Positions 660-60,362 of a DNA stretch of 64,000 nucleotides are shown here, one piece after another; within the stretch, counting starts at the first letter, position 1, and the number at the start of each line of letters is the position of its first letter. This DNA is from Waddliaceae bacterium (GTDB lineage Bacteria; Chlamydiota; Chlamydiia; Chlamydiales; SLFE01), in contig CAVYRW010000004.1 of assembly GCA_963771045.1 (NCBI GenBank), forward strand, positions 1,760,001 to 1,824,000, read 5' to 3'. The position numbers were made by a program, and so were the translations under genes. Below the pieces are notes generated by a model. The model was given only the letters and a program-made list of their open reading frames with translations, made no database searches and was not told the origin of the DNA.

Positions 660-1463
660 TCAGATTTTGAAGCGTCTGCTCGCTGCTTGGCAATATCTCG
701 AAGCGATAAGATTTTTGGGCTGATGGATCAAAGAAGAATAGTAATCGACCGACTGAAACAGCGCATCCATCAGCTCGGGACTTAAAAGCGACGGCTCTTT
801 TTCCAGAAAAACAAAACAATCTTCCATAGCATGGGCCAGTTCCACAAGAAGATCGAGCCCCACGACTTTAGCGGCCCCTTTTAACGAATGGGCGGCCCTC
901 ATCAGGTTGTGGTAGGTTTCGCCAGTGGCATTTTGACTCTCCAAAACCAGCAGCCCCTGATTCAGAATGGAAGCTTGGGATTCGGCTTCTACGCAAAAAA
1001 GATCCACCAGCGACGGGTCGCAAATCTTCCCTTCGCTCTTTAAGTCAGGCTCCTTCATTTCGACAATTTCAAGTCCCGTCATTTGAGTAAAAAATTTCTC
1101 AAGTTCCCGGGCCTTTTGCTCGATTTCCTCCGCCTTTCCGGGTAAATTTTCCGAAGAGCAATGCTCGAGCTTCCTAAGCAGATTGACCACCCTTTTGACG
1201 ACCTCGATATCCCGGGCCGATAATTTATGAATTTTTTGCAGGGAAAGGGCTAGATTTCGGGTGAACCTGGAGATAAAGTCAAAACGGATAATTTTTGCCG
1301 AACTTTGAATGATATTAAATGTTTTGACCACATCTTCCAATGAGCCGCTGTCAAGAGCATTTTCAAGGTTGTCGAGATGTCCTGAAAGCTCCTGAAGAAA
1401 CAGATCTAGCAGCTCTTTGCCGATCTGCTCTTTTTTTTCTTTTTTATCCTGCCCGGCTTCCAT
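660..1463 (-). CDS. CheA/WspE N-terminal part with two Hpt-like domains
   Basis: Second domain has LMRAAHSLKGAAKVVG (phospho-His motif). First has FNIIQSSAKII, without the His. Ends at an in-frame TGA (660-662). Confidence 0.82.
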   Translation of the reverse strand: MEAGQDKKEKKEQIGKELLDLFLQELSGHLDNLENALDSGSLEDVVKTFNIIQSSAKIIRFDFISRFTRNLALSLQKIHKLSARDIEVVKRVVNLLRKLEHCSSENLPGKAEEIEQKARELEKFFTQMTGLEIVEMKEPDLKSEGKICDPSLVDLFCVEAESQASILNQGLLVLESQNATGETYHNLMRAAHSLKGAAKVVGLDLLVELAHAMEDCFVFLEKEPSLLSPELMDALFQSVDYYSSLIHQPKNLIASRYCQAASRRFKI

Positions 1464-1466
1464 AAT

Positions 1467-2045
1467 TTACAGAGACCTTTTTAAACTGTAGAACAAGAGC
1501 TCTTCATCCAAAAATCCGACGCTTTTTTCTTTCCATGTCAGCACTCCTCTCAGATAATTCGTCGATGATTTGGCCACATTGACTGGAACGTTTTCCAAAG
1601 CGCCCATATCGAACTGATAGATTCCGTAAGCTTCGTCGACAGGAAAAACAAAGAGCTGGCCGCCATTTTCAATCACGATCATCCTGTTGTAAATGATCGC
1701 GCTTTGAGGCGGCGGCATCTTTTTATCCTCTTTGATCTCGAATAAATTCTTCAAGTCGACGCAAAGCCTCATCTGCCCTCCAATATTGACCAGTCCTTTT
1801 AAGATCGGATTCTGCTTATGAGGGATGATATGGATCGGTTTCTTTTCGCAGATCTGATTAAAAAAAGAGGTCGAAAGACCAAACCATTCGCTGTGCAGAC
1901 GAAATAATAGAATGGAATGTTCCCGCGTTTCCAGATAGGTTTTTTTTCCCTCTCTTAGAATTTTAGTCCATTCTTTAATATATTGAGGAGAGACCGGCCG
2001 AGACAACAGCTTATCTGCGGAATAGGAATCTTCACTTACTGACAT
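1467..2045 (-). CDS. CheW-like protein (WspD-like)
   Basis: LLFRLHSEWFGL ... IHIIPH..NPILKGLVNIGGQMRLCVDL ... FVFPVDE; lies between CheR and CheA. Confidence 0.85.
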   Translation of the reverse strand: MSVSEDSYSADKLLSRPVSPQYIKEWTKILREGKKTYLETREHSILLFRLHSEWFGLSTSFFNQICEKKPIHIIPHKQNPILKGLVNIGGQMRLCVDLKNLFEIKEDKKMPPPQSAIIYNRMIVIENGGQLFVFPVDEAYGIYQFDMGALENVPVNVAKSSTNYLRGVLTWKEKSVGFLDEELLFYSLKRSL

Positions 2046-2047
2046 TT

Positions 2048-3235
2048 CTACTTCTCCGTCATTTTTTTAGATTTGCCGCTATCTGCCATCAAGTCGAGAT
2101 ATGTTTTCGCTTCTTCGTTGCCGGGATCAAGATAAAAGGCTTTTTGAAATAAACGGTATGCCTGGCTTTCACGGCCCATGGCGTGCTGTATGATGCCCTG
2201 CAAGTAGAAGGCACGTGCGTCGCTTCCAAATTTTTTGATATAATCTTCAATGGAAAGTTGCGCCTCGATCAGCCGGCCGCGGTCGGCCAGCTCGCGAGCC
2301 TTCTCATAATCGATATCTTTTTTGCTTTTTCCTTCTTTAACTTCTTCGTTCTCTTTGCCGCTGCTTAAGATTTGATCAATCTCGTGAAAAAGTTCTGTCT
2401 TGTAGCTCAGCCGATCTTTCTCTTCTTCTTTTTTGCAATAAGCGGATATATTACCGTATTTAACAGTTTGAAAGTCCAGGTGGCGGATTTTGTCATATTC
2501 AGCCTCTCCAAGAAGTAAAATGCCTTGCGTCATAAGAGCCTTTTCGATCCTTTTTAACAGATTGTACTGAAGCTGGGGCGATAGATAAATCAAGAGGTTG
2601 CGGCAAAGGACAACGTCATACTTGTTTTGGCTTTGCGAATTGGGATAATCGACAACATTGCCTCTTTTATACCTCACAGAAAACCTGATTTCGTCTTTCA
2701 ACTGATACCCGTTTTCCACCTGGTTGAAATAGCGTCGCTGATACTCCAGATTTTTATCCCGAAAGGAATTTTTTCCGTAAATGCCTTTTTGTGCAAAATC
2801 AAGAGATTCCTTGCTCACATCGACAGCTTCGACACGAAAGGATCCCAAAGGCATCGCCGCTTCGAGCAAACACATCACAACCGAATACGGCTCCTCCCCG
2901 GTAGAGCAGCCCAAAGAAAGTATTCTAAGAGGACGCCCCTTCCGATATTTTTCCTGATTGTCCTTAGCAAAAACCTTCAGGAAATCGAAACATCTTTTTT
3001 CGCGAAAAAACCATGTTTCCGGAATGACGATCATATGGATCATCTGCTGCATTTCCGTAAGCGAATTTAAAAGATGAGCAAAGTATTCGCCAATGGTTTG
3101 ACATTGGCACGCTTCCATGCGCTTTTGAACGCACGCCGCCCAATTATTCGGCGACAAACTGTGGGGATGAAGCCCGATTTTTTCTTCCATGAGCTTTTGA
3201 ATACGTTTTAAATAGCGGCTGTCTACTTCATCCAT
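2048..3235 (-). CDS. CheR-type methyltransferase with C-terminal TPR (WspC-like)
   Basis: IPETWFFRE, LRILSLGCSTGEEPYS, YDVVLCRNLLIY; C-terminal ARELADRGRL..A / AFYLDP TPR. Confidence 0.92.
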   Translation of the reverse strand: MDEVDSRYLKRIQKLMEEKIGLHPHSLSPNNWAACVQKRMEACQCQTIGEYFAHLLNSLTEMQQMIHMIVIPETWFFREKRCFDFLKVFAKDNQEKYRKGRPLRILSLGCSTGEEPYSVVMCLLEAAMPLGSFRVEAVDVSKESLDFAQKGIYGKNSFRDKNLEYQRRYFNQVENGYQLKDEIRFSVRYKRGNVVDYPNSQSQNKYDVVLCRNLLIYLSPQLQYNLLKRIEKALMTQGILLLGEAEYDKIRHLDFQTVKYGNISAYCKKEEEKDRLSYKTELFHEIDQILSSGKENEEVKEGKSKKDIDYEKARELADRGRLIEAQLSIEDYIKKFGSDARAFYLQGIIQHAMGRESQAYRLFQKAFYLDPGNEEAKTYLDLMADSGKSKKMTEK

Positions 3236-3680
3236 TACGCGATCCTATTAAATAGTCTTTAAGAGAATTTTGCAGTTTCTCGACTTTGACAAACTGAACC
3301 GTGTTATTTCCTTCCGACATAATGCCGCCCAGGCAAGGCAGATCTTTGACAACAACCCCCCCTTCGACAAACTTCTCCAAAGGAGCGTCGATGGTTTTCG
3401 TCACCTTTTCAGCCATCAGGCCGAATTCAATTTCCCTCTCTTCTTCGAAAAATCGAAATAATATGATCCTTGTATGCATTGCCTGCCTGGAAGGCCTCTC
3501 AAGCACAAGGCTGCACCAGTCAATAACGGGAATCGGCTTCCCCCCCACATTGATCGACCCTTTGATAAATTCAGGCATATGGAAAATCGGTTTGATCGCC
3601 ACTTGGGGAATGATTTCACTAATATGATCGCACCTGCAGGCGTATCTTTCATCGCCGGCATGAAAAACGAGCAGCAACAT
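3228..3680 (-). CDS. CheW-like protein (WspB-like)
   Basis: MLLLVFHAGDERYA ... G.INVGGKPIPVID ... TRIIL ... GLMAEKVT. Confidence 0.85.
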   Translation of the reverse strand: MLLLVFHAGDERYACRCDHISEIIPQVAIKPIFHMPEFIKGSINVGGKPIPVIDWCSLVLERPSRQAMHTRIILFRFFEEEREIEFGLMAEKVTKTIDAPLEKFVEGGVVVKDLPCLGGIMSEGNNTVQFVKVEKLQNSLKDYLIGSRNG

Positions 3681-7842: not shown

Positions 7843-8152
7843 ATGAAAATATCAAATAAAGACTGTAAAGAAATTTTAGGAAATTTCAATCATTATTTCA
7901 AAGGAAAACCACAAAAAATCAAACAATTAAGTCAAAGTGAAAGGAAGTTAATTCTAAAAGCAAAGAAAAATTTTAATCGTTGCCATGAGAAAACTGACAA
8001 AAAAACCGATTATTTAATGGGTAGCATCAAAATTAAAGCATTTAAAGACCCTAAAATTAAGAAATACAGTTTTATTTTATCATTTTTTAATGGGTTTAGA
8101 AACATATTTTTTTGATAGAATATCTTCAAGAAAACTTTTAAAAATTGGGTAG
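7843..8152 (+). CDS. Small unknown protein, paralog 1 of tandem trio (C-terminus frameshifted at a T7 run)
   Basis: ORF 7843..8115. Removing one T at 8107-8113 restores FFDRISSRKLLKIG, matching the GRISS motif of paralogs 2 and 3. Confidence 0.65.
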
Positions 8153-8162
8153 AAAAATATAC

Positions 8163-8216
8163 TTTACAAAAAAACTTTATTTTGTTATAATAATTTGTAA
8201 TTTACACAATAGGAGG
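8163..8216 (+). promoter_or_regulatory. sigma70/sigma66-type promoter and RBS of paralog 2
   Basis: TTTACA (8163-8168), 17 nt spacer, TATAAT (8186-8191) preceded by TG; AGGAGG at 8211-8216. Confidence 0.7.
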
Positions 8217-8223
8217 CAATATT

Positions 8224-8586
8224 ATGAAACTATCAAAAGCTGATGCAAGTGTAATAATTAAAACAGTTGAAAACCTTAATGACAATGGAATAGGTTCCAT
8301 AAAACATTTCAACCAAAAAGAAAGGAACCTTATTATAAAAGCATTTAACACAATGAAAGAGGGAGAAAATTTAGAAGACGCAGATACAATCCAAAACGCA
8401 AAGATAAGTGCTTTAAATTGCAGTATCTATCACAAAATTTCGATAGAACCAAAATCGCATCATTCCAACTTAGTTAAAAAAATCTTCAAAGGTTTTCTCA
8501 ATCTATTTGGCCGCATAAGCTCTAGAAAAATCGAAAATAAGATTATACATTTTAATGGAACTTCGCCTCAATTGTACAATTATTGA
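8224..8586 (+). CDS. Small unknown protein, paralog 2
   Basis: IGSIKHFNQKERNLIIKA ... EPKSHHSNLVKKIFKGFLNLFGRISSRK. Confidence 0.75.
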   Translation: MKLSKADASVIIKTVENLNDNGIGSIKHFNQKERNLIIKAFNTMKEGENLEDADTIQNAKISALNCSIYHKISIEPKSHHSNLVKKIFKGFLNLFGRISSRKIENKIIHFNGTSPQLYNY

Positions 8587-8634
8587 CCCAGTTCCTAAAT
8601 ATATCTAAAATTTATGTAATTCGCACATTCATAA

Positions 8635-8660
8635 GGGTTCTGACAAACAGAACCCCTTTT
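8635..8660 (+). terminator. Intrinsic terminator
   Basis: GGGTTCTG-acaaa-CAGAACCC followed by CTTTT. Confidence 0.7.
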
Positions 8661-8708
8661 CCTTATGGAATAAATCTTAATTATGTTATATTGCGTTAAC
8701 AAACACCA

Positions 8709-9101
8709 ATGAGGTTGCAAATGTATTTAACAAAATCAGAAGCTAATAAAGTATATCAAGAAGCAATAATTTTTGATAATAAAATCGGAAATATAAAACT
8801 TTTAAATCAAAAAGAAAGAAAGCTTATTATAAACGCTATCAATATAAGTATTCTTGAAGAAAACCAACCAGAGAACCAAAGAGTGATCTGGAGTGATGAA
8901 ACACGAGAATTACTTAACAATATACTAGATAAAGCCAAAGATGAACCAAAATCGAAACACTCCAACTTGTTTGTTTCCTTCTTCAAAGGTTTTGCCAATT
9001 TATTTTTAGGCCGCATAAGCTCTCAAAAAGTCCACAATAAAATTAAACTGTTGACTCCGCCACAATTTCAAGAGAATGGTTTATACAAACCTAAAAATTA
9101 A
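8709..9101 (+). CDS. Small unknown protein, paralog 3
   Basis: IGNIKLLNQKERKLIINA ... EPKSKHSNLFVSFFKGFANLFLGRISSQK. Confidence 0.75.
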   Translation: MRLQMYLTKSEANKVYQEAIIFDNKIGNIKLLNQKERKLIINAINISILEENQPENQRVIWSDETRELLNNILDKAKDEPKSKHSNLFVSFFKGFANLFLGRISSQKVHNKIKLLTPPQFQENGLYKPKN

Positions 9102-11965: not shown

Positions 11966-11971
11966 GACCCT

Positions 11972-12526
11972 TGAGGAGCTTAGAATTGGCAAACCCGAGA
12001 TTCCTTTCGATGTACGACCGATAATTCTCTGGAAGGGCGTCTCTTTCTTAACAGGTCCCTGCAGATTTGCTGGCATTCTTCATACTTTCCAATCCAATAA
12101 GCACAAATGGAAAGCTCCAAAGCCAAACCGTAATCATATGGCCATTGCTGCAAATCAAGCGCTCTTAGGGTTGTATTCTCTTTCAGCGCTTCGGCAAGTT
12201 CTTTTGCCTCGTCAGCGCCGATACTACATTTTGATAAATTGAGAAATCTTAGATTTGTTAACTTTAGAAGCTTTTCTACTTGTTGAGCTGAAAGTTGAGT
12301 ATTAGACAAGTTAATTGTTACGAGATTTGGAAATTTGCTGACCAACTTATCTAAAAGTTCATCTGTCATTTGTAAATTTGAAAGATCGAGTTCAGTAATC
12401 AACCGAGTTGTTGGGGAGGTTCCAGCACGTGAATCGTTAGCAGCGCTGCTTGGCTAGCGTACCTAGCAAATGTATAGATTTGTATAGGTTTTTAGGAGCG
12501 GTACTAGATCAGTATCGAATCGATCA
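11972..12526 (-). pseudogene. Decayed LRR (RNI-like) gene fused to a duplicated glycosyltransferase 3' end
   Basis: ITELDLSN..., LVTINLSN, LRFLNLSKCSIGADEAKELAEALKENTTLRALDL, then QQWPYDYGLALELSICAYWIGKYEECQQ. 11972-12152 repeats 12651-12831. Confidence 0.75.
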
Positions 12527-12630: not shown

Positions 12631-13797
12631 CTACTGCTGGCAAATGCCTTCGAGGAGTTTGGAATTGGCAAATCCGAGATTTCTTTCGATGCACGACCGA
12701 TAATTCGCAGGAAGATCGTCTCTTTTTAACAGGTCCCTGCAAATTTGCTGGCATTCCTCATACTTTCCGATCCAATAAGCGCAAATGGAAAGCTCCAAAG
12801 CCAAACCGTAATCATATTGCCATTGCTGCAAGAATAAAAGGTCGCTTGACTGGGGAACGGACATGCCCAGTTTGGCGACCCTGTAACCGGCTTCATAATT
12901 TTCTTTGCTTCGGTAGTAGCAGGCCAGTTGATAGAGAGGCTCCAAGCGAGATGGGCGGTACTTGAAAGCCTTCATATAGCTTTCGACAATTTTTTCTTCC
13001 GGCGAGCCAAGGATTTCATGAAGATTGCCTACCTTGTAAAGAGACCAGAACACCTCCTGATCAAATCCCCCCATTTCCGCCCGCTTCTCATAATTTTCCA
13101 GGGCCTTTTCAAACTCGCGGGCAGAAAGACAACTTTGGGCAAGATAAAAAGTGTAGCGGCTATCATCCGGTTTTTTCTCAAGCTCCCTTTCCAATATTTC
13201 TATATCCTTGACGAATTTTAAAGGATCTTTCGACCTGGCCCCGTCGCATGTGTATGTGTTGGTTACTTTCTGCAAGGTAGCGAAAGTCCTCGAAGGAGGG
13301 GGGCAAATCACCTCGTGCAACACCCCTTTCCATTCCCAATCAAAATGATTGTTGATCAGTTGAATCTTCCCATACTTCATCCCGCCGCAAGTAATCGTCA
13401 CATAATAATAGTCAAGATTTAACTCGGGCAGCTCAAACTCGGGCTCATAAACCAAATACTCATCAGCGTCGATAAAAAATATATAGTCACTCTTACCTCG
13501 AGCCAGCTCCAAAGCCTCATTGCGGTTGTGCTCAAAGTTGATCCAGGGCCTCTCGTGAAGCTCCCCCGGCACCCCCTTCTTTTTCATATAACTGCGTATG
13601 AGATCCTGAGTTCCGTCCGTCGATCCGGTATCGACAATGACCCAGTAGTCGATAATAGGCAAAACCGAGTCGATGCATCGGCAGATGACATCGGTCTCAT
13701 CTTTGACAATCATGTTGAGACAGATTGTCTTGTGGTCCTCCGCTTGCAGTGTGAAAGCGGCGATGACAAGAAGAAAGACTCTGATAAATGATTTCAT
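12631..13797 (-). CDS. GT2-family glycosyltransferase with TPR C-terminus and signal-peptide-like N-terminus
   Basis: MKSFIRVFLLVIAAFTLQA|EDH; ICLNMIVKDE, IVDTGSTDGT, FFIDADE, WKGVLHE, RYTFYLAQS. Confidence 0.88.
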   Translation of the reverse strand: MKSFIRVFLLVIAAFTLQAEDHKTICLNMIVKDETDVICRCIDSVLPIIDYWVIVDTGSTDGTQDLIRSYMKKKGVPGELHERPWINFEHNRNEALELARGKSDYIFFIDADEYLVYEPEFELPELNLDYYYVTITCGGMKYGKIQLINNHFDWEWKGVLHEVICPPPSRTFATLQKVTNTYTCDGARSKDPLKFVKDIEILERELEKKPDDSRYTFYLAQSCLSAREFEKALENYEKRAEMGGFDQEVFWSLYKVGNLHEILGSPEEKIVESYMKAFKYRPSRLEPLYQLACYYRSKENYEAGYRVAKLGMSVPQSSDLLFLQQWQYDYGLALELSICAYWIGKYEECQQICRDLLKRDDLPANYRSCIERNLGFANSKLLEGICQQ

Positions 13798-13819
13798 AAC
13801 TATAAAAAAATTGGAAAGT

Positions 13820-13843
13820 TAACTTTAGCTCATGCTAAAGTTA
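13820..13843. promoter_or_regulatory. Perfect inverted repeat at the centre of the divergent GT promoter
   Basis: TAACTTTAGC-tcat-GCTAAAGTTA, nearly equidistant from the ATGs at 13797 and 13868. Confidence 0.6.
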
Positions 13844-13867
13844 TCTTCGGCTATTTTCAAGGTTTTT

Positions 13868-14986
13868 ATGAAATCTTTTTGCATTTTTTTACTCGCTCTT
13901 TTCATCGTTTCCTCCAACTATGCCGGAGAGAGAAAATCGATCCTCATTTCAACATTCACTGTTCAGGGCGTCAAACCGTGGGACCCAGACAGCGTCAAGC
14001 AAGGAATTACAGGCTCAGAAGAGGCGGTCATCTACATGTCGCAAAAACTAGCCAGCATCGGCTACAGGGTCATTGTTCTGGGAAATCCCCCGCAAAGTTC
14101 GCCGCATTCGGCTTCCGGTGCCAACCCCAGATTCGTTGGGAATGTTTCCGATTTGACTCATTGCGATATCGCCATCTCATGGAGAAATCCAAGAAATGCT
14201 AAAGAACTGAGGAAATTTGCAGACAAAGTCTATTTATGGCCGCATGATTCCTGCTTTCGTCATGTGCCTGAAAAAATGATAAACGAATTCGACGATGTTC
14301 TCTGGCTGTCAAACTGGCAAAGAGAACAGTGGTCTTCGGTCAATCCCGCATTCGCCAAATTCCATAGAATTTTTGGCAACGGCATCAACCCCGAACAGTT
14401 TCACCCTGTTGGAGAGAGACGCAATCCCTACTCATGTGTCTACGGTTCAAATTACGGTTTGGGTCTGGAGACGCTTCTCGACATATGGCCCAAGATCAAG
14501 GAAAAATATCCGATGGCCACGCTTGATATCTACTACGGCTGGCAGCATTGGGGTTTCCTTTCCCCAGAAAAAGAGAGAAAAATGATGAATCAGGTGGTCG
14601 TCCTCGCTTATCTTGATGTCCGCGATCACGGGCTGGTCAGCCACGAAGAAATCAACCGCGCCTACGAAACCTCCTCATTCTGGACCTATCCGTTAAACGC
14701 GACCGAAACCTTCTGCATCACAGCCTTAAAAGCCCAGATTGGAGGCGCGGTCCCCGTCGTTATTCAAAGAGCCGCTCTAAAAGAAACCGTCAAACACGGC
14801 TACACATGCGAAAAAACCGAAGAATATCTGCCCATGCTTCTCAAAGCTATGAGCGAGGCCGAAACAATATCTGTCGAAGACAGAAAAAAAATGAGAGAAT
14901 CAATCACCGGGAATTATACCTGGGAAAAAATCGCTTTAAAATGGGATGAATTGTTCAATGATAAAAATACACATTCAGTCTGCTGA
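13868..14986 (+). CDS. GT-B (GT4-like) glycosyltransferase with signal-peptide-like N-terminus
   Basis: MKSFCIFLLALFIVSSNYA|GE; GITGSEEAVIYM, LWPHD, GNGINP, ETFCITALKAQ.GGAVPV, ALKETV, YTWEKIA. Confidence 0.85.
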   Translation: MKSFCIFLLALFIVSSNYAGERKSILISTFTVQGVKPWDPDSVKQGITGSEEAVIYMSQKLASIGYRVIVLGNPPQSSPHSASGANPRFVGNVSDLTHCDIAISWRNPRNAKELRKFADKVYLWPHDSCFRHVPEKMINEFDDVLWLSNWQREQWSSVNPAFAKFHRIFGNGINPEQFHPVGERRNPYSCVYGSNYGLGLETLLDIWPKIKEKYPMATLDIYYGWQHWGFLSPEKERKMMNQVVVLAYLDVRDHGLVSHEEINRAYETSSFWTYPLNATETFCITALKAQIGGAVPVVIQRAALKETVKHGYTCEKTEEYLPMLLKAMSEAETISVEDRKKMRESITGNYTWEKIALKWDELFNDKNTHSVC

Positions 14987-14997
14987 CGTTTTGCACC

Positions 14998-17643
14998 GTG
15001 ATTGCCCTGGCGGCGTTTGCGCTCAATAAAACATCGCCCAAGGAGGCAAAACCCCGCCTGTCGATCATTACATCCGTATTTAACGGAGATCGGCATATTC
15101 GAGGCTTTCTTGAAAATATCACCAGCGTCAATCACTTTGAAGACTACGAACTTCTCCTCATCCACCCTCCCGGTCCCGGCCATGAAGAAACCATTATCAA
15201 GGAATACCTCCCCCGCTTTGCCAATATCCACTACATCAAAATTGACAGCGACCCGGGAGTTTACGGCGTCTGGAACCTGGGAGCCAAAATGGCAAAAGCC
15301 GATTTTCTCACAAACGCCAACGTCGACGATAGAAAACATCCGGAAATGTTAGACCGGCACCTCCGGCATCTTGAAGAAAACCCCGATATTGACCTGGTGT
15401 ACTCCGACTTCATTATGACCCGTATTCCGAACTCCGATTTCGCCGCCAACAAAAGCACAAAAGTCATCCGTTACGATGATTATTCTCCGGAAAAAATGTG
15501 TTTATGCCTGCCGGGGCCGGGGCCGCTCTGGCGGAAAGATGTCCACAGCCGCTTCGGCTGCTTTCGTGATGATTTCATAGCAGCGGGAGATTTTGAAATG
15601 TGGAACCGCATGGCAGCCGGCGGAGCCAAAATGAAAAAACTGCCTGGGGTCGGCGTACTTTTCTACGAGAATCGCTTGGGACTGATCTACAACCCTTCTC
15701 CCGAAAAAACAGCCCAAAGAGAATGGGAAAATAATTATGTCAAACATGCCTATTCGTATCTTTGGAATCAAATTCCCGAAGAGAAGCCCCTTCTTCTCGT
15801 CCTTATGCCCACAAGGTCGCGTCCCGAGCTTTTTTTTAAACAGCTCGACAACTACTATTACAACCTCTCCGGAGAAACTCGCTACCGCTTTCTTATCAAC
15901 TGCGACGAAGACGATGAAACCATGAATAATCCCGAGGTGCGAGAGCGGCTCGGCACCTACCCCAATCTCATCTATTCGTTTCAACCCGGCAGCACAAAAA
16001 TCGACGCCTATAACAGAAACATCTTTTCCACTTCCTATGATGTTCTTCTTGCCGCAAGCGAAGATCTCGAACCTCAGGTGTGGGGCTACGACAAAAAAAT
16101 CTTGGGCCAAATGAAAGCACATTTTCCGGGCTATGACGGCGTTCTCAACTACCATGACGGCTATGTCGGCGAAAGGTGCAATATCTATCCCATTGCAGGC
16201 CGCAAATTTATTGAACGTCTGGGACACTTTTACCACCCCGAATACACCTCCCTTTATGCTAACGAAGAGCTCACAGTGATCTCCCGAATTTTAGCCAAGG
16301 AAAAAATCATCAACGAAGTGCTGCTCAAACACCGCCATCCCGCCCATGGTGAAAGGCCCTGGGATGCTCTGGATAGACGAAATGAAGGGTTTAAAGAACA
16401 AGATAAGCAGGTATTTTTAAAACACAAAGAAAACCGATTTGATTTAGACGGCAAAGATTTTTTTGAAAAGGACTGGAGCATCCTGATCTGCACACTCGAT
16501 GAACGGAAGCAGATTTTTGAAAACCTCTATAACGAGCTGCTCGATCAAATAAGAAAAGCCGGGCTAAGTGATAAGATCGAAGTGCTTTATTATAGGGATA
16601 ATCGAGAAAAATCTATCGGATTTAAACGAAATGCGCTCATGAGACACGCTCGTGGAAAATATGCCTGCTTTATCGACGACGACGATGAAGTACATCCCGA
16701 ATACATCAAAATGATTCATGGAAAAATGCAATCCGATCCGGACTGCATCAGTCTGAAAGGCATACTGAACAATCCCAAAGGACAAACTTATGTATTCGAA
16801 CACTCGTTAGCTCACGGCACCCAATACGCATTTAAAAACGGTCGATATATCCGCCCTCCCAACCATCTCAATCCTATGAAAAAAGTTGTCGCCGCTCAAT
16901 TTTTATTTCCTGAAATTAACTTAGAAGAGGATAAGTTATGGGCAATGGATATCGCCCGTTCCGGAATTTTAAAGACCGAAGAAACCATCGAAGATCCCTA
17001 TTATTTTTACACCCCGTCCGAGTATGCCGCAAATATCAGTCTCGAAAAAAAAGAAAGAGACCTCCTGATAACCTGCTGCGCAAGGAGTGGAGCTGCATTT
17101 ATGACACAATTTCTCAAAAAAAATAAAATGGATGTGGGCCATGAGAACGACGGAAAAGACGGCGTTGTCTCATGGCTAATGGCTGTAGACAGCAACTTAG
17201 CCCCCTGGTGCTTGCCATCAAATGCCTATACATTCCAGCATGTATTGCATCAAGTGAGGCACCCGCTCAAGACCATCGCTTCCGCAGGAAATGAACCCGA
17301 CCGTTCATGGCTTTTTATTCAACGCTTTGTTCCGGAGATAAACCTGGAAGATCCCAAGATAGTCAAAGGAGCCAAGTATTGGTATTACTGGAACCTCCTT
17401 GCAGAAAAAAAGTCGGAGTTTACCTACCGCGTGGAAGATTTGGACAGCGCCGTTGATGAAATTAACAGCCGCCTAGGACTTAACCTGAATAAAAATATCC
17501 TTAAGGAGATCCCAAAAAACGTCAATACCCGGGGTTATAAGGATATCTACACCTGGCAGGACCTCAAAGAAAATCTGGAGCCTGAACTCTACGATAATAT
17601 TGTCGAGATGGCCACGCGTTATGGCTACCTTGTCCAAGACTGA
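14998..17643 (+). CDS. Multidomain protein: three GT-A (GT2-like) domains plus a sulfotransferase-like domain
   Basis: Domain 1 LSIITSVFNGD...LTNANVDDR; domain 2 MPTRSRP...CDEDD...YHPEYTSLY; domain 3 WSILICTLDER...SIGFKRN...FIDDDD; C-terminus ITCCARSG...HQVRHPLKTIAS...YRVEDL. Confidence 0.8.
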   Translation: MIALAAFALNKTSPKEAKPRLSIITSVFNGDRHIRGFLENITSVNHFEDYELLLIHPPGPGHEETIIKEYLPRFANIHYIKIDSDPGVYGVWNLGAKMAKADFLTNANVDDRKHPEMLDRHLRHLEENPDIDLVYSDFIMTRIPNSDFAANKSTKVIRYDDYSPEKMCLCLPGPGPLWRKDVHSRFGCFRDDFIAAGDFEMWNRMAAGGAKMKKLPGVGVLFYENRLGLIYNPSPEKTAQREWENNYVKHAYSYLWNQIPEEKPLLLVLMPTRSRPELFFKQLDNYYYNLSGETRYRFLINCDEDDETMNNPEVRERLGTYPNLIYSFQPGSTKIDAYNRNIFSTSYDVLLAASEDLEPQVWGYDKKILGQMKAHFPGYDGVLNYHDGYVGERCNIYPIAGRKFIERLGHFYHPEYTSLYANEELTVISRILAKEKIINEVLLKHRHPAHGERPWDALDRRNEGFKEQDKQVFLKHKENRFDLDGKDFFEKDWSILICTLDERKQIFENLYNELLDQIRKAGLSDKIEVLYYRDNREKSIGFKRNALMRHARGKYACFIDDDDEVHPEYIKMIHGKMQSDPDCISLKGILNNPKGQTYVFEHSLAHGTQYAFKNGRYIRPPNHLNPMKKVVAAQFLFPEINLEEDKLWAMDIARSGILKTEETIEDPYYFYTPSEYAANISLEKKERDLLITCCARSGAAFMTQFLKKNKMDVGHENDGKDGVVSWLMAVDSNLAPWCLPSNAYTFQHVLHQVRHPLKTIASAGNEPDRSWLFIQRFVPEINLEDPKIVKGAKYWYYWNLLAEKKSEFTYRVEDLDSAVDEINSRLGLNLNKNILKEIPKNVNTRGYKDIYTWQDLKENLEPELYDNIVEMATRYGYLVQD

Positions 17644-18088: not shown

Positions 18089-18110
18089 TTTTCAAGAGAA
18101 TTGCAAAAAA

Positions 18111-18453
18111 GAGGGAAGGCGGTAAGCCGGATTCTGTCGTTAAGTCATCATTTGTCTAGGGATCCCGTCGCCGGAATCCTCAAGCGGCTGTCTTCAGAGC
18201 TCTGCGGAGTACAGTGAAGCGCCCTGTATTTACCTTGCTTCGGATAGGGTTTGTCGCAGCCGGCGGGTCTCCCTGCCGGGGCCGGGTCTTAAACCCAGCG
18301 TTTCAGCCTGCCCGTCCCGAGGGGCGGCGGTATACTTTCTGTTACACTTTCCGTAGCCTTTCGGCCCCCAGCCTTTCACTGGTATCCTCTCCTGTGAAGT
18401 CCAGACTTTCCTCCGCTGCTTAGAGAATGCTGCGGCGATGACCTGCCTTCCCG
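18111..18453 (-). ncRNA. rnpB: RNase P RNA (bacterial type A)
   Basis: Minus strand has GAGGAAAGTCTGGAC near the 5' end and ACAGAATCCGGCTTA near the 3' end; P1 helix GGGAAGGC/GCCTTCCC. Confidence 0.95.
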
Positions 18454-18461
18454 AGATATTA

Positions 18462-20940: not shown

Positions 20941-21541
20941 ATGGATTTCATGGCAAAAGACGAAGAGATCAATAACTTTAAGGTGCAGGACAAGATCGAC
21001 CAGTCCCTGCTGGACGCAAGGCGCGTTTTTCTCTCGGACGACATCAATACAGATTCGGCCGAAGACGTCATCCGCAAGCTCTGGTATCTTGAAATGAAAG
21101 ATCCAGGAAAACCGATACTGCTTATCATCAACAGTCCGGGAGGAGCGATCGATTCGGGATTTGCGATTTGGGACCAAATCAAAATGATCACCTCGCCTGT
21201 CATATACGCTAGTGACAGGGCTTGCCGCTTCAATGGGCTCGATTTTAAGCCTCGCTGCCGACCCCGACAAACGATTTGCGACGCCTCATTCGAGAATCAT
21301 GATCCACCAGCCAAGGCTGAGCGGCGTCATTCAAGGGCAGGCGACAGACCTTGAGATTCAGGCAAAGGAAATGATCAAAACACGCGAAATGATCATCGAG
21401 GTCTATATGGACGCCACCGGCAAAGACCACGACACCATTGATGAGTCGATTGACAGAGACACATGGTTCGGCGCCGAAGAAGCGAAAAAGTTCGGCTTGA
21501 TCAGCGGCATCGTGAATTCATATAAAGAGATTCCGATGTGA
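20941..21541 (+). CDS. clpP: ClpP protease subunit (+1 frameshift near 21202)
   Basis: INSPGG in one frame; [10 protein letters not shown] and RIMIHQP in the +1 frame. Confidence 0.9.
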
Positions 21542-55294: not shown

Positions 55295-56290
55295 TCATTC
55301 CCCTCCTCCGATTATTAATTCGGCTATTTCGACTGCATCTAAACAGCAGTGCTTTTTCTGCCATAGAATATAAACAAAATCCTCTCCCTCAAATGGGTAC
55401 GATTTGCACGACCCCCATAAGACATCTGTTTCCCCTAGAGCATGGCATCCATTGCTTGTATCGGCTACTGGGTGAGCTAGCTGGGTCTTGTAGAGGGTTT
55501 TCTTTATGATAGGCATATATGTGGCCTCGCAGAAATTGTCCTTCTCATAGCCGCGGATGAAGCCTGTTTTGTGCATTTTAGCGAGGCCTCTTTGGAGAAG
55601 GAGCTGGCTGGCCTGAATCCCCCCGACGTGACTGCCAACAAAGCCTGTAAAGGGATAAAGGGATCCGTGACAGCCTGCGCACCAGAAAAGGGCGTCTGTG
55701 GGCCTATAAAAGGTCGAGGAGGCGCAATCTGCGATGCAGGCGGCATGGGACAAGGGATTGGCAAAAAGGGCCACCTCGGGGTTTAGAATATTGGTCAGAC
55801 TGTCATCGTACCAGGTATAGTCGAGTTCGCTGAAGTATGAGAGGTCCCATGATCCCTTTTCTACGCAAGTGAAGTCGGTCAGGATGTCCAGGATGGCAAA
55901 AACGGGATAATCGTAGATATGGACGTGGGCAAAGCTTGATTTAGTGCCCGATTGGTGACTGCTGAGGCAGCCTCGATTTTTGATGCTTTCGGTTCCAATG
56001 GAAACCCCTCCGAGGCCTATGAGCTTGTAGGCATGATGAGTGACATCGATGAGTTTAGTCGGCTCCCAAAAAGTGATGGGGACACCGGGTCTGGGAGGAA
56101 CTCCGGGGCAGATGCAATAAATAGCATCGTAATCGGTGTAGTCTTTGTACTCAGGAGTTGTATTGACCGATGATACTGTAATGGGAAACATGCACTCCCA
56201 GCAGATATCCGTCAAAGGATTGACGACAGTCCCCTCTTCAGCAAAGAGGAGGCCAAAACCTGTTATTAAAAGAAAGAGTATTCGGACCAT
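55295..56290 (-). CDS. traU: F-type conjugation protein TraU
   Basis: NPLTDICWECMFPI, FWEP, Y.SELD..W, ACIADC, LFWCAGC.GSLYP.TG, GEDFVY.LW.K..CC. Confidence 0.93.
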   Translation of the reverse strand: MVRILFLLITGFGLLFAEEGTVVNPLTDICWECMFPITVSSVNTTPEYKDYTDYDAIYCICPGVPPRPGVPITFWEPTKLIDVTHHAYKLIGLGGVSIGTESIKNRGCLSSHQSGTKSSFAHVHIYDYPVFAILDILTDFTCVEKGSWDLSYFSELDYTWYDDSLTNILNPEVALFANPLSHAACIADCASSTFYRPTDALFWCAGCHGSLYPFTGFVGSHVGGIQASQLLLQRGLAKMHKTGFIRGYEKDNFCEATYMPIIKKTLYKTQLAHPVADTSNGCHALGETDVLWGSCKSYPFEGEDFVYILWQKKHCCLDAVEIAELIIGGGE

Positions 56291-56862
56291 CAGGCTCCCC
56301 TATTCAGTTTGTCTAGAAGGGATTTAGCGTTTTTCGTGTCTCCTTGCTTTTCGAATGTTTCAAGAGCATAGCGTATTGAGGTTGTTCCTGTCATTTTGTC
56401 AAAGCGGTTATCGTCAATGAGAATCGTTGTGGGGACCAAGTTTATTTGATACTTGGAAAAATCCGGTGGGTTAAGAACAATGGGGGCATGAACTCCCCTT
56501 TTCCTAAGAGAAGCGACTTTATTTGCGAATGATCTAAAGCTATTGTCTGGAAGCCCTCTGATAACAAAAGCGCCGCCGACTTTCTGAAGGCTTTCGGATA
56601 ATTCAACCCAAAGTCTGTCTGGAACGGAAAAGGACATGAATACTAAAAGACTTGGATCATCCTGACTAACTGGTGGAATATAGCAGGGTTTTTTGTAGTT
56701 TTCTTTCAGTATCTCATTGTTTCTTGCCTGAATTTCTGAATAGTCATATTGGGAATTTGCCTCGGCAACTTTTTGTTTTACAATCTTTTTGAACCAATCG
56801 GAGGATTCTTCAGCTGAAAGAATCCCCATGGATAGAAGAAATAGAAGTGCGGCAGTTTTCAT
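56290..56862 (-). CDS. trbC: F-type pilus assembly protein TrbC
   Basis: LLVFMSFSVP, FVIRGL, I.LNP..F.KY.I..VP. Confidence 0.85.
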   Translation of the reverse strand: MKTAALLFLLSMGILSAEESSDWFKKIVKQKVAEANSQYDYSEIQARNNEILKENYKKPCYIPPVSQDDPSLLVFMSFSVPDRLWVELSESLQKVGGAFVIRGLPDNSFRSFANKVASLRKRGVHAPIVLNPPDFSKYQINLVPTTILIDDNRFDKMTGTTSIRYALETFEKQGDTKNAKSLLDKLNRGA

Positions 56863-57461
56863 TCCCCTCCCCCGACTGGAATTTCTTCGATTTTTAGATA
56901 CTTACCCTCCTGAGAGACTCTGGCCGGGACATGAGAAATGTTTAGGTGTTTGCATAATACCCCGCCCTGGTCGAAATACATGGGATTTTCGAGCTTTTCC
57001 TCTAATTCCAGGGGATTACCTTTAATAAGGATCCATGCCCCGCGTTCATTGGAGGCCCACTCGATGTGAGACTGATTGGATCCGTCAATAAAAAGTAGAT
57101 TTTGGGAAAGTGAAGTGGCAAATAACGGATTATAGACAGTTCCTTTTTTGGCAATTATATTCCCCTCGTGATCTTTGATGTCCTGATTGACGGTTATCGT
57201 AGGGTCGAAATAGTGCGATTTATAACTCTCAGATTCCGTAATGCCATTTACAGAGGGAGGATGAGTGAGCCTATCTGAGTAGTGGTCTTGCAGTTTTTTT
57301 TGCAGAGATTTTTTTTGAGAATCAGAGAGGTTATCAACTCTATTTTTCAGAAAATCAATCAGGTCTTGCTCTGATATGGAAAAAGTATTTCCCCTTGTCC
57401 CGAAATCTTTTGCATAGGCTGAGTTGAAGAGAAGGAGTGCTATGATTATAAAACGGGCCAT
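56859..57461 (-). CDS. traW: F-type pilus assembly protein TraW
   Basis: KDFGTRGNTF.I.EQD, YFDPT, KGT.YNPL, YFDQGG.L...L.I..VPA.V.QEG. Confidence 0.92.
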   Translation of the reverse strand: MARFIIIALLLFNSAYAKDFGTRGNTFSISEQDLIDFLKNRVDNLSDSQKKSLQKKLQDHYSDRLTHPPSVNGITESESYKSHYFDPTITVNQDIKDHEGNIIAKKGTVYNPLFATSLSQNLLFIDGSNQSHIEWASNERGAWILIKGNPLELEEKLENPMYFDQGGVLCKHLNISHVPARVSQEGKYLKIEEIPVGGGE

Positions 57462-57907
57462 AGCTCCTCCTCGATGTTCTCTGCAGGGATCAGACCGAAT
57501 TCTTCATAACGCGAGTCAAAGCTATCCTCATGGGGACAAAAGACAAAGTAGAGTCCCTTAGGTATGACCTGCTCAGGTATGGGATGCAGATCAAACCCGG
57601 AGAGAGATTTGTCTTTAGCTATCGCAATCTGACTTCCATTGATCGAGATTTTTCCCTCTTTATGGGTGATGCGGTCGCCGGGAACACCGATAACCTGCTT
57701 TGATAGCCTTGAATCATAATTGGGATGCGAGAGTGTGACAAAGCTATCTTTTTTCATCTCGTGGAGGGGTTTGCTCAGGAGGAGGGTATAGGCATGACTT
57801 GGAGTTAAATTGATCCTGATGGAATAGGGGCTAAAAATAAGAAAAACAATGAGAGCTAGTAGAGCCGAGGATATAAAAAAAAAGCGGTTTGCTTTTCTGT
57901 CCGTCAC
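57446..57907 (-). CDS. Conjugative S26 signal peptidase (TrhF-like)
   Basis: INLTPS, K.VIGVPGD, H.DSFDSRY..FGLI. Confidence 0.88.
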   Translation of the reverse strand: MTDRKANRFFFISSALLALIVFLIFSPYSIRINLTPSHAYTLLLSKPLHEMKKDSFVTLSHPNYDSRLSKQVIGVPGDRITHKEGKISINGSQIAIAKDKSLSGFDLHPIPEQVIPKGLYFVFCPHEDSFDSRYEEFGLIPAENIEEELWPVL

Positions 57908-60362
57908 TTTCTTCTCTCCAGCATGATTTTTAAGGCCTCAATAGTCGATTTGCCCTGTTCTTTGAGGGCTTGCAGATCGGCATAATCTTCTGCTATTGTG
58001 CTATAGAGAAGCTTGGAAAAGGGATCCAATATTGTTCTGGCTATCGAATATCCGCCGTGGGCATCGCAGATCATTACTTCGGAATATTCTGTCCCTTTCT
58101 TGATTACGGTTTCTAAGGCTCTCCGCTTATTCTCGTCGAAAATGTCCATATCAACAGCTTTTTTCAATGAACTCGGTTTCTGTTTGAGAAGGCACATCCA
58201 GTCTGAATTATCATAAGCGGCCTTAGCGCCCGTACTCTTGAAAAAGTCTTCTAGACTTTGGGTTCCTATGACGAGGGATCCTCGGTATTTTCTTAGGCGC
58301 CTGGCAAGCGTTTCGATGAAGGGGCCTGTCTGCTCCCCTTTCAGAAGATCCCAGGCTTCGTCGATGCAAATGAATGTAGGTGTCTTTCGATCACCCATGA
58401 AAACACGGTTGCTGATCTCCATAATGAAAATCTGGAGAATGACCGATTGGAGGTCTTTTCTTCCTTTGAGTTCCTCTAGCTCTATGAGAACCATATTTTC
58501 ATTAAAGTTAACGTTTGAATCACCATCGAAGTAATGGCCGTAATTGCCGTTTTTCATATAAGGCGTTAGCATTGTTCCGAGGCTGTAGGCCTCTTTTTCC
58601 TTTTCATTGAGGAGAATATTACCAACATCTGTGATCTGAGCTTTTCTCCCCTTTTCTTCCCAGGCTCTGGCTATGGCCATTTCAATAAAGGCATTTTGAT
58701 AATCTGTTGTCCCCTCTGATGGGGCAGCCATACAAGAAATGATCGATTTTATCCCGCTGAAGGCAACTAACCTCTCTTCAGGATCGTTGGGTATGTTGGT
58801 AAAGGGATTTAGGCAAAGGGTTGTTCCTTTGTTGAACTCGATTTTTTGGCCTCCAATAACATCGCAAAGTTTTTCAAAGCTTCGACCGACATCAAGGACG
58901 TAAACCTTGGCGCCTGTCCCCAGGCCATTCATCATAAGTTCTTGCATGAAGACGGACTTTCCCGAACCGCTGTCTCCGACGACAATTGTGTTGAAGTTCC
59001 CTGTTCCGTCGAAGGGATTGAAATTGAGGATCTGTCCCCTCCTCCCGAGAAGAATGGTTCCGGGATTGTGAGTCCCCATCCATTCCCCTTGCATAGGTAT
59101 GAATGAGGGAGTTTCCGGGGAAAGGGTTGTTCTGAGCAAATTCAAGTCTTTTAAGTCCTGAGAGTATTCAGCTCATGTCATGGGGAGGATGGACAGGAAT
59201 TGAGGGAGGTGAATGAAGGTATTTTCGGCTAAGCGAAATTCGTTAGCCCTGTATATGCTTCGAATGACCTGCTCAATGTTTTCGACATTTTGAGGAGTCG
59301 ACCAAAAACCTGTCGATAGTTCGGTTGTGACGAATTTGGCTCCTTCCTTAAGTGAGTGACGAATATGATCGCATTCATTGATTTCATCTTTGAGCGAGGT
59401 GATCATACGACAGAGGGCGGCTGACTGTCCTTGCTTTTCTATAAGCTGGCTTCTTCTCCAGTGCCTTCCCTCTTCTACAGACTGCTTGGGACAGTGGATT
59501 CCGTAGTGGATGTAAAAAGGGGTGTTGATTCGGTAGTTGTCATTGATGAAGTCCCCTATCAGATTCCCCATAAGGTTTAAATGCCAATAGTCGGGATAAT
59601 CGACGGCCCTAAAGCTTTTAAAGACTGCGGAAGACTCTTTTTCCCAGATGAGGCGTCTGCTTCAACTGTCATATTACCACCCGTTGTCAGCTGGGATGAA
59701 AGGCTCTGAAGGGGATTCCATTTTTTTCTCACAGGGAAGGGAGAAAGATCAAAATCAACCAAAGATCCAACATTGTCTAGAAAATCTTGCGCCCTCCAGC
59801 TTTGAGCATGAGAGAGCATTTTCAAGACTTTCAAGGCCTTATTCTTTTTATTTTTGACCCTGTCTGCAAGATTTGAGCTATATTTCCCTTTCATGCTGAA
59901 GGAGAAGAAAAATCGGAAGATCCTTGGACTCGTCAGCTGGGTTTCATTGAAAAACTTGGCCCTCTGTTTGATGAATTCATAGAAGATATCCCCATGTTTT
60001 GCTCTGATCTGGGCATGAGATTTCAGATAGTGATTGATCCTGTGGTCTGCAAAAAGAAGGCACTGGATTGAAGATCCTTCTTCAAGGGTCTCTTCAAAAA
60101 GCCCTTTAAATTCCCTCTGGGCCGTCTCGTCCCCTCCAACCAGTGGTGGCATCTCAATCGTGAATCCAAGACTATCATCGTTGATGAATAAGCCGCTTTC
60201 CTCATCGTAGGACTGGTAAGGTAAGATCGAAGCAAGAGTGTCGAAGGAAAAGACGCTTTCTTTGATCTCGGGCCTTTTGAGAAGCGATTCCTTGATTCCC
60301 ACGTCGGGGTCACCAAAGAATCCGGCAATTCTCCTCCCCGCTTTGCTCAAACTGTCAATCAT
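57904..60362 (-). pseudogene. traC: TraC (VirB4-like ATPase), fragmented
   Basis: GDSGSGKSVFMQ, VLDVGRSF, IDEAWDLL, ARRLRKY.G. Frameshift near 59650 and in-frame TGA at 59173-59175 (PMT*AEY). Confidence 0.9.

Follow-up and report, generated by a model that had tools for sequence, protein, structure and literature searches.

The window analysed here, a stretch of 64,000 nucleotides from contig CAVYRW010000004.1 of a Waddliaceae bacterium (Chlamydiota), carries three neighbouring genes which a sequence-only reading had singled out as a cluster of apparently exported glycosyltransferases, and all three open reading frames (ORFs) are present where that reading placed them. The first, on the minus strand at 12631–13797, encodes a 388 amino acid protein in which a family GT2 glycosyltransferase domain of the GT-A fold is joined to tetratricopeptide repeats (GT2-TPR). 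It lies head-to-head with a plus-strand gene for a GT4-like glycosyltransferase of the GT-B type (13868–14986, alternative start 13832), with 70 bp from its ATG to the ATG at 13868; under the read-supported sequence discussed below, the GT4-like stop would move to near 15029. The third gene, also on the plus strand, encodes a protein with several glycosyltransferase domains (multi-GT). Because the strands diverge, the three genes do not form one transcript, and a single operon was rejected for this reason. The surrounding genome comprises 2.57 Mb in five contigs and is 90.6% complete, and the DNA of the window was found in reads solely from the soil metagenomes of one study, with no RNA run among them.

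The first point to note is that each protein appears to begin with an export signal. Sec signal peptides of 19 amino acids are predicted for GT2-TPR (13741–13797, minus strand) and for the GT4-like protein (13868–13924, plus strand), on the basis of their sequence and of conservation among homologues, and for GT2-TPR also of its charge and c-region pattern. The hydrophobicity scores of the three leaders are 2.9, 3.45 and 2.6. A score of 2.5 is reached by all four proteins for which export was expected and by 15 of 1810 internal windows, and none of 32 cytoplasmic proteins of the window reaches 2.2; leaders that are hydrophobic by chance were rejected on these controls. A leader is present in 113 of the 120 best homologues of GT2-TPR and in 95 of the 120 best of the GT4-like protein, the 25 negatives of the latter including some fragments or late start calls (P0070, and P0146, which is identical to a signal-bearing gene) as well as others that are truly signal-less. 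For multi-GT, all 31 selected close homologues (P0002–16, P0018–19 and P0021–34, leaving out P0017, P0020 and P0035–65) have a leader. When all 64 non-self matches are judged by eye, about 39 carry one; the 25 without it fall in P0035–65, single-domain matches of which the sole named one is a Synechococcus protein. Leader-like scores occur in 5 of 127 distant GT4-like homologues (<46% identity); the 10 phage genes that were checked have no such score. The Sec-type N-termini that the sequence-only reading had seen on GT2-TPR and the GT4-like protein are thus borne out by the heuristic, the controls and the homologues.

For multi-GT, the hydrophobic run noticed earlier ahead of an 881 amino acid ORF is indeed in frame, but in the assembly it is preceded by two stop codons and that frame contains no start codon. 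In a short-read contig (run X1, depth 4.2) the A5 run 14963–14967 is shorter by one base, at 14963, which brings the ATG at 14958 into frame with the leader. This is the only contig over the site, and a single contig under depth 5 may err; X1 may moreover be the source sample, and the site lies outside the coverage of runs X2 and X3. In L006 and L007, the closest named relatives (from a Waddliaceae metagenome-assembled genome (MAG), 79–87% identical), an in-frame ATG stands at the homologous place and the leader is intact, and the C-terminus of the GT4 homologue P0070 agrees with the shorter run. On these three grounds the true start and signal peptide of multi-GT are probably at 14958–15030 (plus strand), and the A5 run is probably one base too long, an assembly error. 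The two multi-GT copies of L006 and L007, which differ from each other, come from one MAG record set; their identity to the window copy is 79% and 87%, and each has a leader.

The leaders have the pattern expected for Sec export and signal peptidase I (a positive n-region, a hydrophobic core and small residues before the cleavage site), as scored by our heuristic on 271 homologues and 32 controls. The net charge of the n-region is at least zero in 238 of 239 scored leaders, the first charged residue past the h-region is acidic in 180 of the 239, and Ala or Gly ends the uncharged run about three times as often as in shuffled sequences (54 versus 19 and 66 versus 23 expected). A signal peptidase II lipobox occurs in 3 of 271 homologues and in none of the three window leaders, and no further transmembrane segment is seen in any of the three proteins. 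These features bear on the possibility that the leaders are membrane anchors and that the catalytic domains stay in the cytoplasm for ordinary lipopolysaccharide (LPS) or capsule synthesis. Such an arrangement would be in keeping with the signal-less, cytoplasmic-type versions within the same family, with the Wzy_C gene and the wza/wzc-like locus elsewhere in the genome, and with the basic residues after the multi-GT leader. However, the positive n-region, the acidic residues after the core and the Ala/Gly end fit cleaved signals in the N-in orientation, and eight other GT2 or GT4 matches in the genome lack leaders (one GT2 and a GT92 have them, and one match is a fragment). Nor was a flippase or polymerase found near the homologue loci, which were read as ORF lists with most neighbours not scanned against Pfam. 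At the cassette itself, the list of neighbours upholds the earlier statement that genes for a flippase, a polymerase or nucleotide-sugar synthesis are missing next to it; features of Wzx/Wzy or ABC-type LPS or capsule loci were absent there and at the homologue loci, and the flippase family PF01943 had no match over cut-off in the genome. Most orthologues keep their leaders, and the cassette does not lie in an LPS or capsule locus. We therefore regard anchoring as very improbable. Export of the enzymes, as first proposed, is well supported by the retention of leaders among orthologues, by their N-in, cleavable charge pattern and by the position of the cassette outside LPS and capsule loci, and it is highly probable, judging from sequence, that all three enzymes are exported by Sec-type signals.

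What might these enzymes do? GT2-TPR matches PF00535 with 45.5 bits (cut-off 23.3), has an invariant D-A-D at 110–112 in the alignment, and gave a structure model with a predicted local distance difference test (pLDDT) score of 93.9. The hallmarks of GT2/GT-A membership (PF00535 over cut-off, GT-A fold, acidic metal motif) were found in GT2-TPR and in the multi-GT domains, with the exception of multi-GT domain 2, which matches no Pfam family and whose motif is weaker. The best PDB folds for the GT2-TPR model are SunS and ThuS (template modelling score, TM, 0.60), and the best matches among viral models are Pithovirus, Harvfovirus and Indivirus proteins (TM 0.83–0.87, 35–37% identical). Profile matches to SunS/ThuS and GmaR have E-values of 7e-18 to 9e-14 at 15–18% identity. 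The architecture of a GT-A domain with TPRs is thus held in common with the glycocin S-glycosyltransferases SunS and ThuS and with Listeria GmaR. Unlike their loci, the window cassette has no glycocin or flagellar neighbour; the score against the SunS family TIGR04195 is 40.2, where the cut-off is 350, and no exporter of a glycocin precursor/exporter locus was found among neighbouring ORFs of at least 80 amino acids. The SunS, ThuS and GmaR enzymes are cytoplasmic. From the modelled fold, GT2-TPR is predicted to be a protein-priming glycosyltransferase.

The GT4-like protein scores 20.5 bits against PF13692, below the cut-off of 27, matches phrog_2170 at E 8e-10 and gives weak profile matches to GT-B enzymes. 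In the ESM Atlas it was placed with PF00534/PF13692 clusters at 0.99, and many of its homologues are annotated PF00534/PF13692. The E-X7-E motif of GT4/GT-B enzymes is incomplete, the first Glu being invariant and the second position Lys or Arg in the chlamydial consensus. This gene and that for GT2-TPR are adjacent in 16 of 26 chlamydial loci, and in all 14 scorable pairs the two agree in signal state (nine with both leaders, five with neither); the other two pairs are a fusion and one with a broken GT4. Fusions of the two occur in L065 and L070 and make up 27 of the 127 distant GT4-like homologues, and the two enzymes form an old module. A tree of the GT4 proteins, from a quick search only, requires 11 changes of label (at least three of them forced) and includes two mislabelled rows (P0118 by the heuristic, P0146 by a late start call); we therefore claim no direction of leader gain or loss. 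For 10 distant GT4 homologues the cluster look-up returned no taxon.

Multi-GT comprises three glycosyltransferase domains, modelled with confidence to about residue 670, and a fourth domain. Domain 1 (15052–15765, plus strand, as are the rest) has a GT-A fold, domain 2 (15775–16455) is GT-A-like by phrog_14945 and loci L002–L005, and domain 3 (16465–17040) is GT-A with a D-rich metal motif (PF00535; phrog_14775, E 1e-29). The last domain (17044–17643) is sulfotransferase-like with a degenerate loop motif for 3′-phosphoadenosine 5′-phosphosulfate (PAPS), as judged from the ESM Atlas (0.94, the third match being a phage-rich 'sulfotransferase family' cluster), from the alignment and from L102, a stand-alone signal-bearing homologue, 49% identical, with the motif intact. 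It has no sequence match in Pfam, NCBIfam, PHROG or PDB, and its pLDDT below 50 reflects an alignment in which only 3 of 17 rows contain it. In T4-like phage contigs (L002–L005), domains 2 and 3 are adjacent, separate, signal-less genes. Among homologues, the fourth domain is mostly swapped for another or missing, and domains also occur as separate genes; multi-GT is therefore a modular fusion.

The best PDB matches of multi-GT are two-domain chondroitin and heparosan polymerases, at the level of fold only (11–14% identity). This match, together with the precedent of luminal glycogen in Chlamydia (PMC4829429), is what might be expected if the exported enzymes produced, instead of glycoproteins, a polysaccharide matrix, free or lipid-anchored, within the inclusion lumen. 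The member that argues otherwise is GT2-TPR, with its SunS/ThuS-like peptide-acceptor architecture, which is also the most widespread of the set: at strict thresholds it was found in 128 of 300 sampled Chlamydiota genomes (the GT4-like protein in 28 of 301). We consider a matrix distinctly improbable, and favour glycosylation of proteins. Neither GT2-TPR nor the GT4-like protein was found in 29–30 sampled members of f4, a family with small genomes (1.0–1.2 Mb).

The relatives of the cassette offer a hint as to which proteins these may be. The 27 loci with multi-GT relatives comprise 7 named chlamydial, 12 Babelota/Dependentiae, 6 unnamed bacterial and 2 weak cyanobacterial ones, and the presence of homologues in Chlamydiota and Babelota fits the intracellular symbiont originally envisaged. 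In Babelota and some chlamydiae the relatives lie within long runs of signal-bearing GT2, GT10, GT92, FkbM, TylF and sulfotransferase genes. The genomic position of the cassette varies freely among loci, and it is likely, on this comparison, to be mobile. In phage MW202524 a GT2-TPR/GT4 fusion lies two genes after the major capsid gene and is followed by glycosyltransferase and methyltransferase genes, while in phage MW202497 GT2-TPR and the GT4-like gene both lie between terminase and portal. The MW202524 run (L083:1656–11978) is likely, from its gene content, to be a virion-glycosylation cassette outside the actinophages. Phage enzymes of the mycobacteriophage Che8 type are reported to glycosylate phage capsid proteins (PMC11256854), and glycogene clusters are reported in giant viruses (PMC9614988). 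No mycobacteriophage match was found at E 1e-4, so Che8 is an analogy and not a homology. From these kin and their reported glycosylation we infer a protein acceptor on the organism's own particle; the phage and giant-virus homologues would favour its own surface as the target. The window module itself differs in being part of a bacterial chromosome and in having export signals, which the viral genes checked lack, although both settings have homologous GT2-TPR and GT4-like genes, among structural genes in the phages, and both have glycosyltransferase clusters with methyl- and sulfotransferases. No phage genes lie near the cassette, and a prophage remnant was rejected for this reason; the arrangement of a phage virion-glycosylation cassette, in a phage genome beside structural genes, is absent here and is seen for the homologues.

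Nucleotide sugars and PAPS are confined to the bacterial cytoplasm. Enzymes that act only on nucleotide sugars would have no substrate outside it unless such sugars were present there, and this is the strongest argument for the reading preferred below. The genome, within its 90.6% completeness, yielded no adenosine 5′-phosphosulfate (APS) kinase, ATP sulfurylase or CysD/CysH family member, and no Gmd, Fcl or ManC orthologue. It has five Sulfotransfer_1 matches, four of them with leaders, and signal-bearing versions of GT11 (two), GT92, Cap59-like, RXYLT1-like, pyruvyl transferase and methyltransferase proteins. A UXS1-like UDP-glucuronate decarboxylase (UDP-xylose synthase, UXS; E 2.5e-101) with a Sec-type leader is encoded at L116:5144–6139 (G000:C4:1745143–1746138). 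Among the sampled Chlamydiota, sulfotransferases occur in 98 of 301 genomes, 66 of the 98 without APS kinase, and GT11 in 88 of 301, 49 of the 88 without gmd. Leaders were found at 24 of the best 30 sulfotransferase loci, at 24 of the best 30 GT11 loci and at 7 of the 12 best loci for the GDP-mannose 4,6-dehydratase Gmd, these loci being the best-scoring matches and not a random draw; two signal-less sulfotransferase loci are of the sugar-synthesis type and lie in genomes with APS kinase. A WecB epimerase has a leader in L018. Sec-type leaders on GDP-mannose 4,6-dehydratases and this epimerase can be seen at L137, L139–L142, L146, L147, L030:17922–19094 and L018:8582–9802.

Exported enzymes might instead be fed with the bacterium's own donors through an unrecognised inner-membrane exporter of nucleotide sugars, so that host donors would be unneeded. 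Cytoplasmic enzymes for UDP-sugars and S-adenosylmethionine (SAM) are indeed encoded, and the phylum has gmd in 39 of 88 GT11 genomes and APS kinase in 32 of 98 sulfotransferase genomes. On the other hand, no route to PAPS or GDP-fucose was found in the genome, and there would be no need to export Gmd and UXS if donor synthesis were completed in the cytoplasm. Own-donor supply thus seems rather improbable. The use of host donors, as the sequence-only reading proposed, gains indirect support from the missing PAPS and GDP-fucose synthesis and from the export, at other loci of the genome and in the phylum, of enzymes that convert nucleotide sugars, but is weakened by the cytoplasmic UDP-sugar and SAM enzymes; on balance we think it probable that the exported enzymes work on host-derived donors.

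Our preferred reading, to which we give a probability of about 0.5, is that the exported cassette glycosylates the chlamydia's own surface proteins outside the cytoplasm, likely with host nucleotide sugars. N-in leaders of the cleavable type would direct all three proteins across the inner membrane, as their sequence and conservation suggest, for release into the periplasm and perhaps, by an encoded type II secretion system, onward to the inclusion lumen; either would be a likely working compartment. The genome has a gspDEFG-like cluster, with scores below NCBIfam cut-offs. GT2-TPR would add the first sugar to a protein acceptor, as SunS and ThuS do on peptides, the chain would be extended by the GT4-like partner and the three GT-A domains, and capping would be carried out by sulfotransferases and methyltransferases exported from other loci. 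Host donors may enter through porins or through host transporters on the inclusion membrane, and may be tailored outside by exported enzymes such as the UDP-xylose synthase with a leader that the bacterium itself encodes. The infectious particle would in this way acquire a glycan coat, a bacterial counterpart of phage and giant-virus particle glycosylation. Candidates for donor entry are four Legionella-MOMP-like porin genes arranged in tandem at L036 (G000:C2:75656–79964); alternatively, their products are candidate acceptors of the glycan.

The compartments have precedents. CPAF is reported to reach the inclusion lumen by Sec and then type II secretion (PMC6717882), and the secreted chlamydial glycogen enzyme GlgA to use host UDP-glucose in the lumen, delivered by SLC35D2 (PMC4829429). 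The same export route would also suit effectors directed at the host, with proteins or glycans of its cytosol or of the inclusion membrane as their targets. Type II secretion genes are present, Sec-dependent chlamydial proteins are reported in both the inclusion lumen and the host cytosol (PMC6717882), and F-box/leucine-rich repeat (LRR) genes adjoin the cassette in L007. Donors, and the NAD(P) cofactors of Gmd and UXS, are in general plentiful in cytosol. However, a multi-step set that extends, caps and converts donors suits the building of a glycan better than single-sugar sabotage, the phage homologues lie among virion genes, and no host-targeting domain is present apart from the TPRs. Host-directed effectors are therefore, in our view, unlikely.

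Several observations weigh against glycosylation of the bacterium's own surface with host donors. The signal calls come from a hydrophobicity heuristic of this analysis and not from SignalP; the crude leader background of the genome is 215 of 1442; and in Babelota 44% of all proteins are reported to have signal sequences (PMC6561590), so that leaders there are less telling. The homologues are related by descent, so that the counts are not independent, and the GT4 tree is a quick one only. Truly signal-less GT4, GT2-TPR and GT11 proteins occur in three genomes (G117, G186 and G173), and two more (G269 and G127) have pairs without leaders. Since gmd is also missing from G117 and G186, whose GT11 has no leader, the absence of a donor pathway cannot on its own be read as a sign of export; in these two genomes donors may be imported, or GT11 may accept a different one. 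APS kinase is present in the genomes of 7 of the 24 sulfotransferase loci with leaders. The genome also encodes UDPGP-family enzymes, GalE, GlgC-like and RfbF-like nucleotidyltransferases and MetK, and the host need therefore not supply UDP-sugars and SAM. The PAPS-loop motif is intact in P0002 and L102, and the window copy lacks the two Thr residues kept in relatives. No acceptor gene is conserved beside the cassette in 17 wider loci, where only FkbM-like methyltransferase look-alikes recur. Finally, gonococcal Lst, a host-donor enzyme once thought to be surface-exposed, proved to be cytoplasmic, although it has no signal peptide (PMC8092323); it cautions that a bacterium may use host donors within its cytoplasm. 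The genomes with signal-less sets of GT4 and GT2-TPR, and in three of them GT11 (G117, G186, G173 and G269; loci L057, L058, L060, L069, L150, L161 and L173), each have at least six GT2-TPR copies.

A wider form of our preferred reading, whose chances we put a little short of even, is that environmental chlamydiae and Babelota moved a whole nucleotide-sugar glycosylation pathway across the inner membrane. The enzymes that prime, extend, sulfate and methylate the glycan and convert its donors, some of which phages and giant viruses also have, would make of the periplasm or inclusion a Golgi-like compartment that runs on host donors and coats infectious particles. Golgi enzymes are type II anchored and are fed by SLC35 transporters. 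As in the Golgi (UXS1, RXYLT1, GT92, Cap59, GT11 and sulfotransferases), nucleotide-donor enzymes would act across a membrane, and members of these families, or look-alikes of them, occur with leaders in the genome. Unlike those of the Golgi, the window leaders look cleavable, and no transporter was identified, no search for one having been made. Since nucleotide sugars and PAPS stay inside, bacteria are held to depend on lipid-linked donors for glycosylation beyond the cytoplasm, and PglB/PglL, ArnT, GtrII and WaaL are polytopic GT-C enzymes that use such donors. These too add glycans outside the cytoplasm, as proposed here, whereas the window enzymes are soluble GT-A and GT-B-type proteins. 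Signal peptides on whole sets of nucleotide-donor enzymes would imply a further route, open only to bacteria inside eukaryotes.

Among the closest known cases is the luminal glycogen pathway of Chlamydia trachomatis, in which a chlamydial Leloir glycosyltransferase of a multi-enzyme pathway is described as acting outside the bacterium on a host UDP-sugar, as is predicted here. GlgA, however, is reported to be type III secreted and to make a storage α-glucan, and belongs to the core Chlamydia genes (PMC4829429). The window set has Sec leaders, GT2, GT4-like and sulfotransferase families and a probable heteroglycan product, and was not found in the sampled f4 members. It would probably extend the glycogen case to another export route, other families and a coat. 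A literature survey, whose coverage did not extend to supplementary secretome tables and most subscription papers, turned up no description of glycosyl- or sulfotransferases exported by Sec in Chlamydiota or Babelota. A word search found neither 'glycosyl' nor 'sulfotransf' in the text available for PMC8242063, bioRxiv 2021.12.21.473556 and PMC13229535, and nothing relevant appeared in PMC11495043. If the reading is true, environmental chlamydiae would have a glycan coat, variable and mobile, on which host range and resistance to digestion could depend, and they would be linked to giant-virus glycobiology. The reading is testable now, as two cultured species, Parachlamydia acanthamoebae (P0198) and Waddlia chondrophila (P0257), encode GT2-TPR with a leader.

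The neighbours of the cassette are a SpoU methylase, an LRR remnant, a 113 amino acid ORF of no assigned family, RNase P RNA (class A, minus strand, 18107–18454) and a CT398-like zinc-ribbon protein; housekeeping neighbours such as the last are consistent with the genome being that of an environmental chlamydia. Scans for sigma-70 consensus promoters (10 versus 8.0 ± 2.5) and for terminators in this analysis were at chance level. Outside the enzyme set, a duplicate of the GT2-TPR 3′-end (11969–12153, minus strand; 186 bp, 91% identical to 12647–12831) is fused to the LRR remnant ORF at 11980–12402, and apart from this duplicate none of the three genes has a paralogue in the genome at E 1e-3. 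L007 has three long LRR genes at the place of the window remnant (11969–12402), and the one scanned is F-box/LRR; the region and its counterpart look like a recombining, effector-like array. A clpP-like gene at 20941–21541 is split across two frames, and the gspD/gspE-like genes at G000:C4:123391–127327 also look split; both are probably long-read indel errors. At 7843–9101, in a patch of low GC, are three short tandem paralogue-like ORFs (90–130 amino acids) with no Pfam match, and similar ORFs lie at the same place in L134. The window also holds a chemotaxis-like cluster (Hpt, two CheW and CheR-TPR; 660–3680), here in a chlamydial genome, and, between IS66 elements at 55295–60362, F-type conjugation genes (traU, trbC, traW, an S26 peptidase and traC in two pieces).

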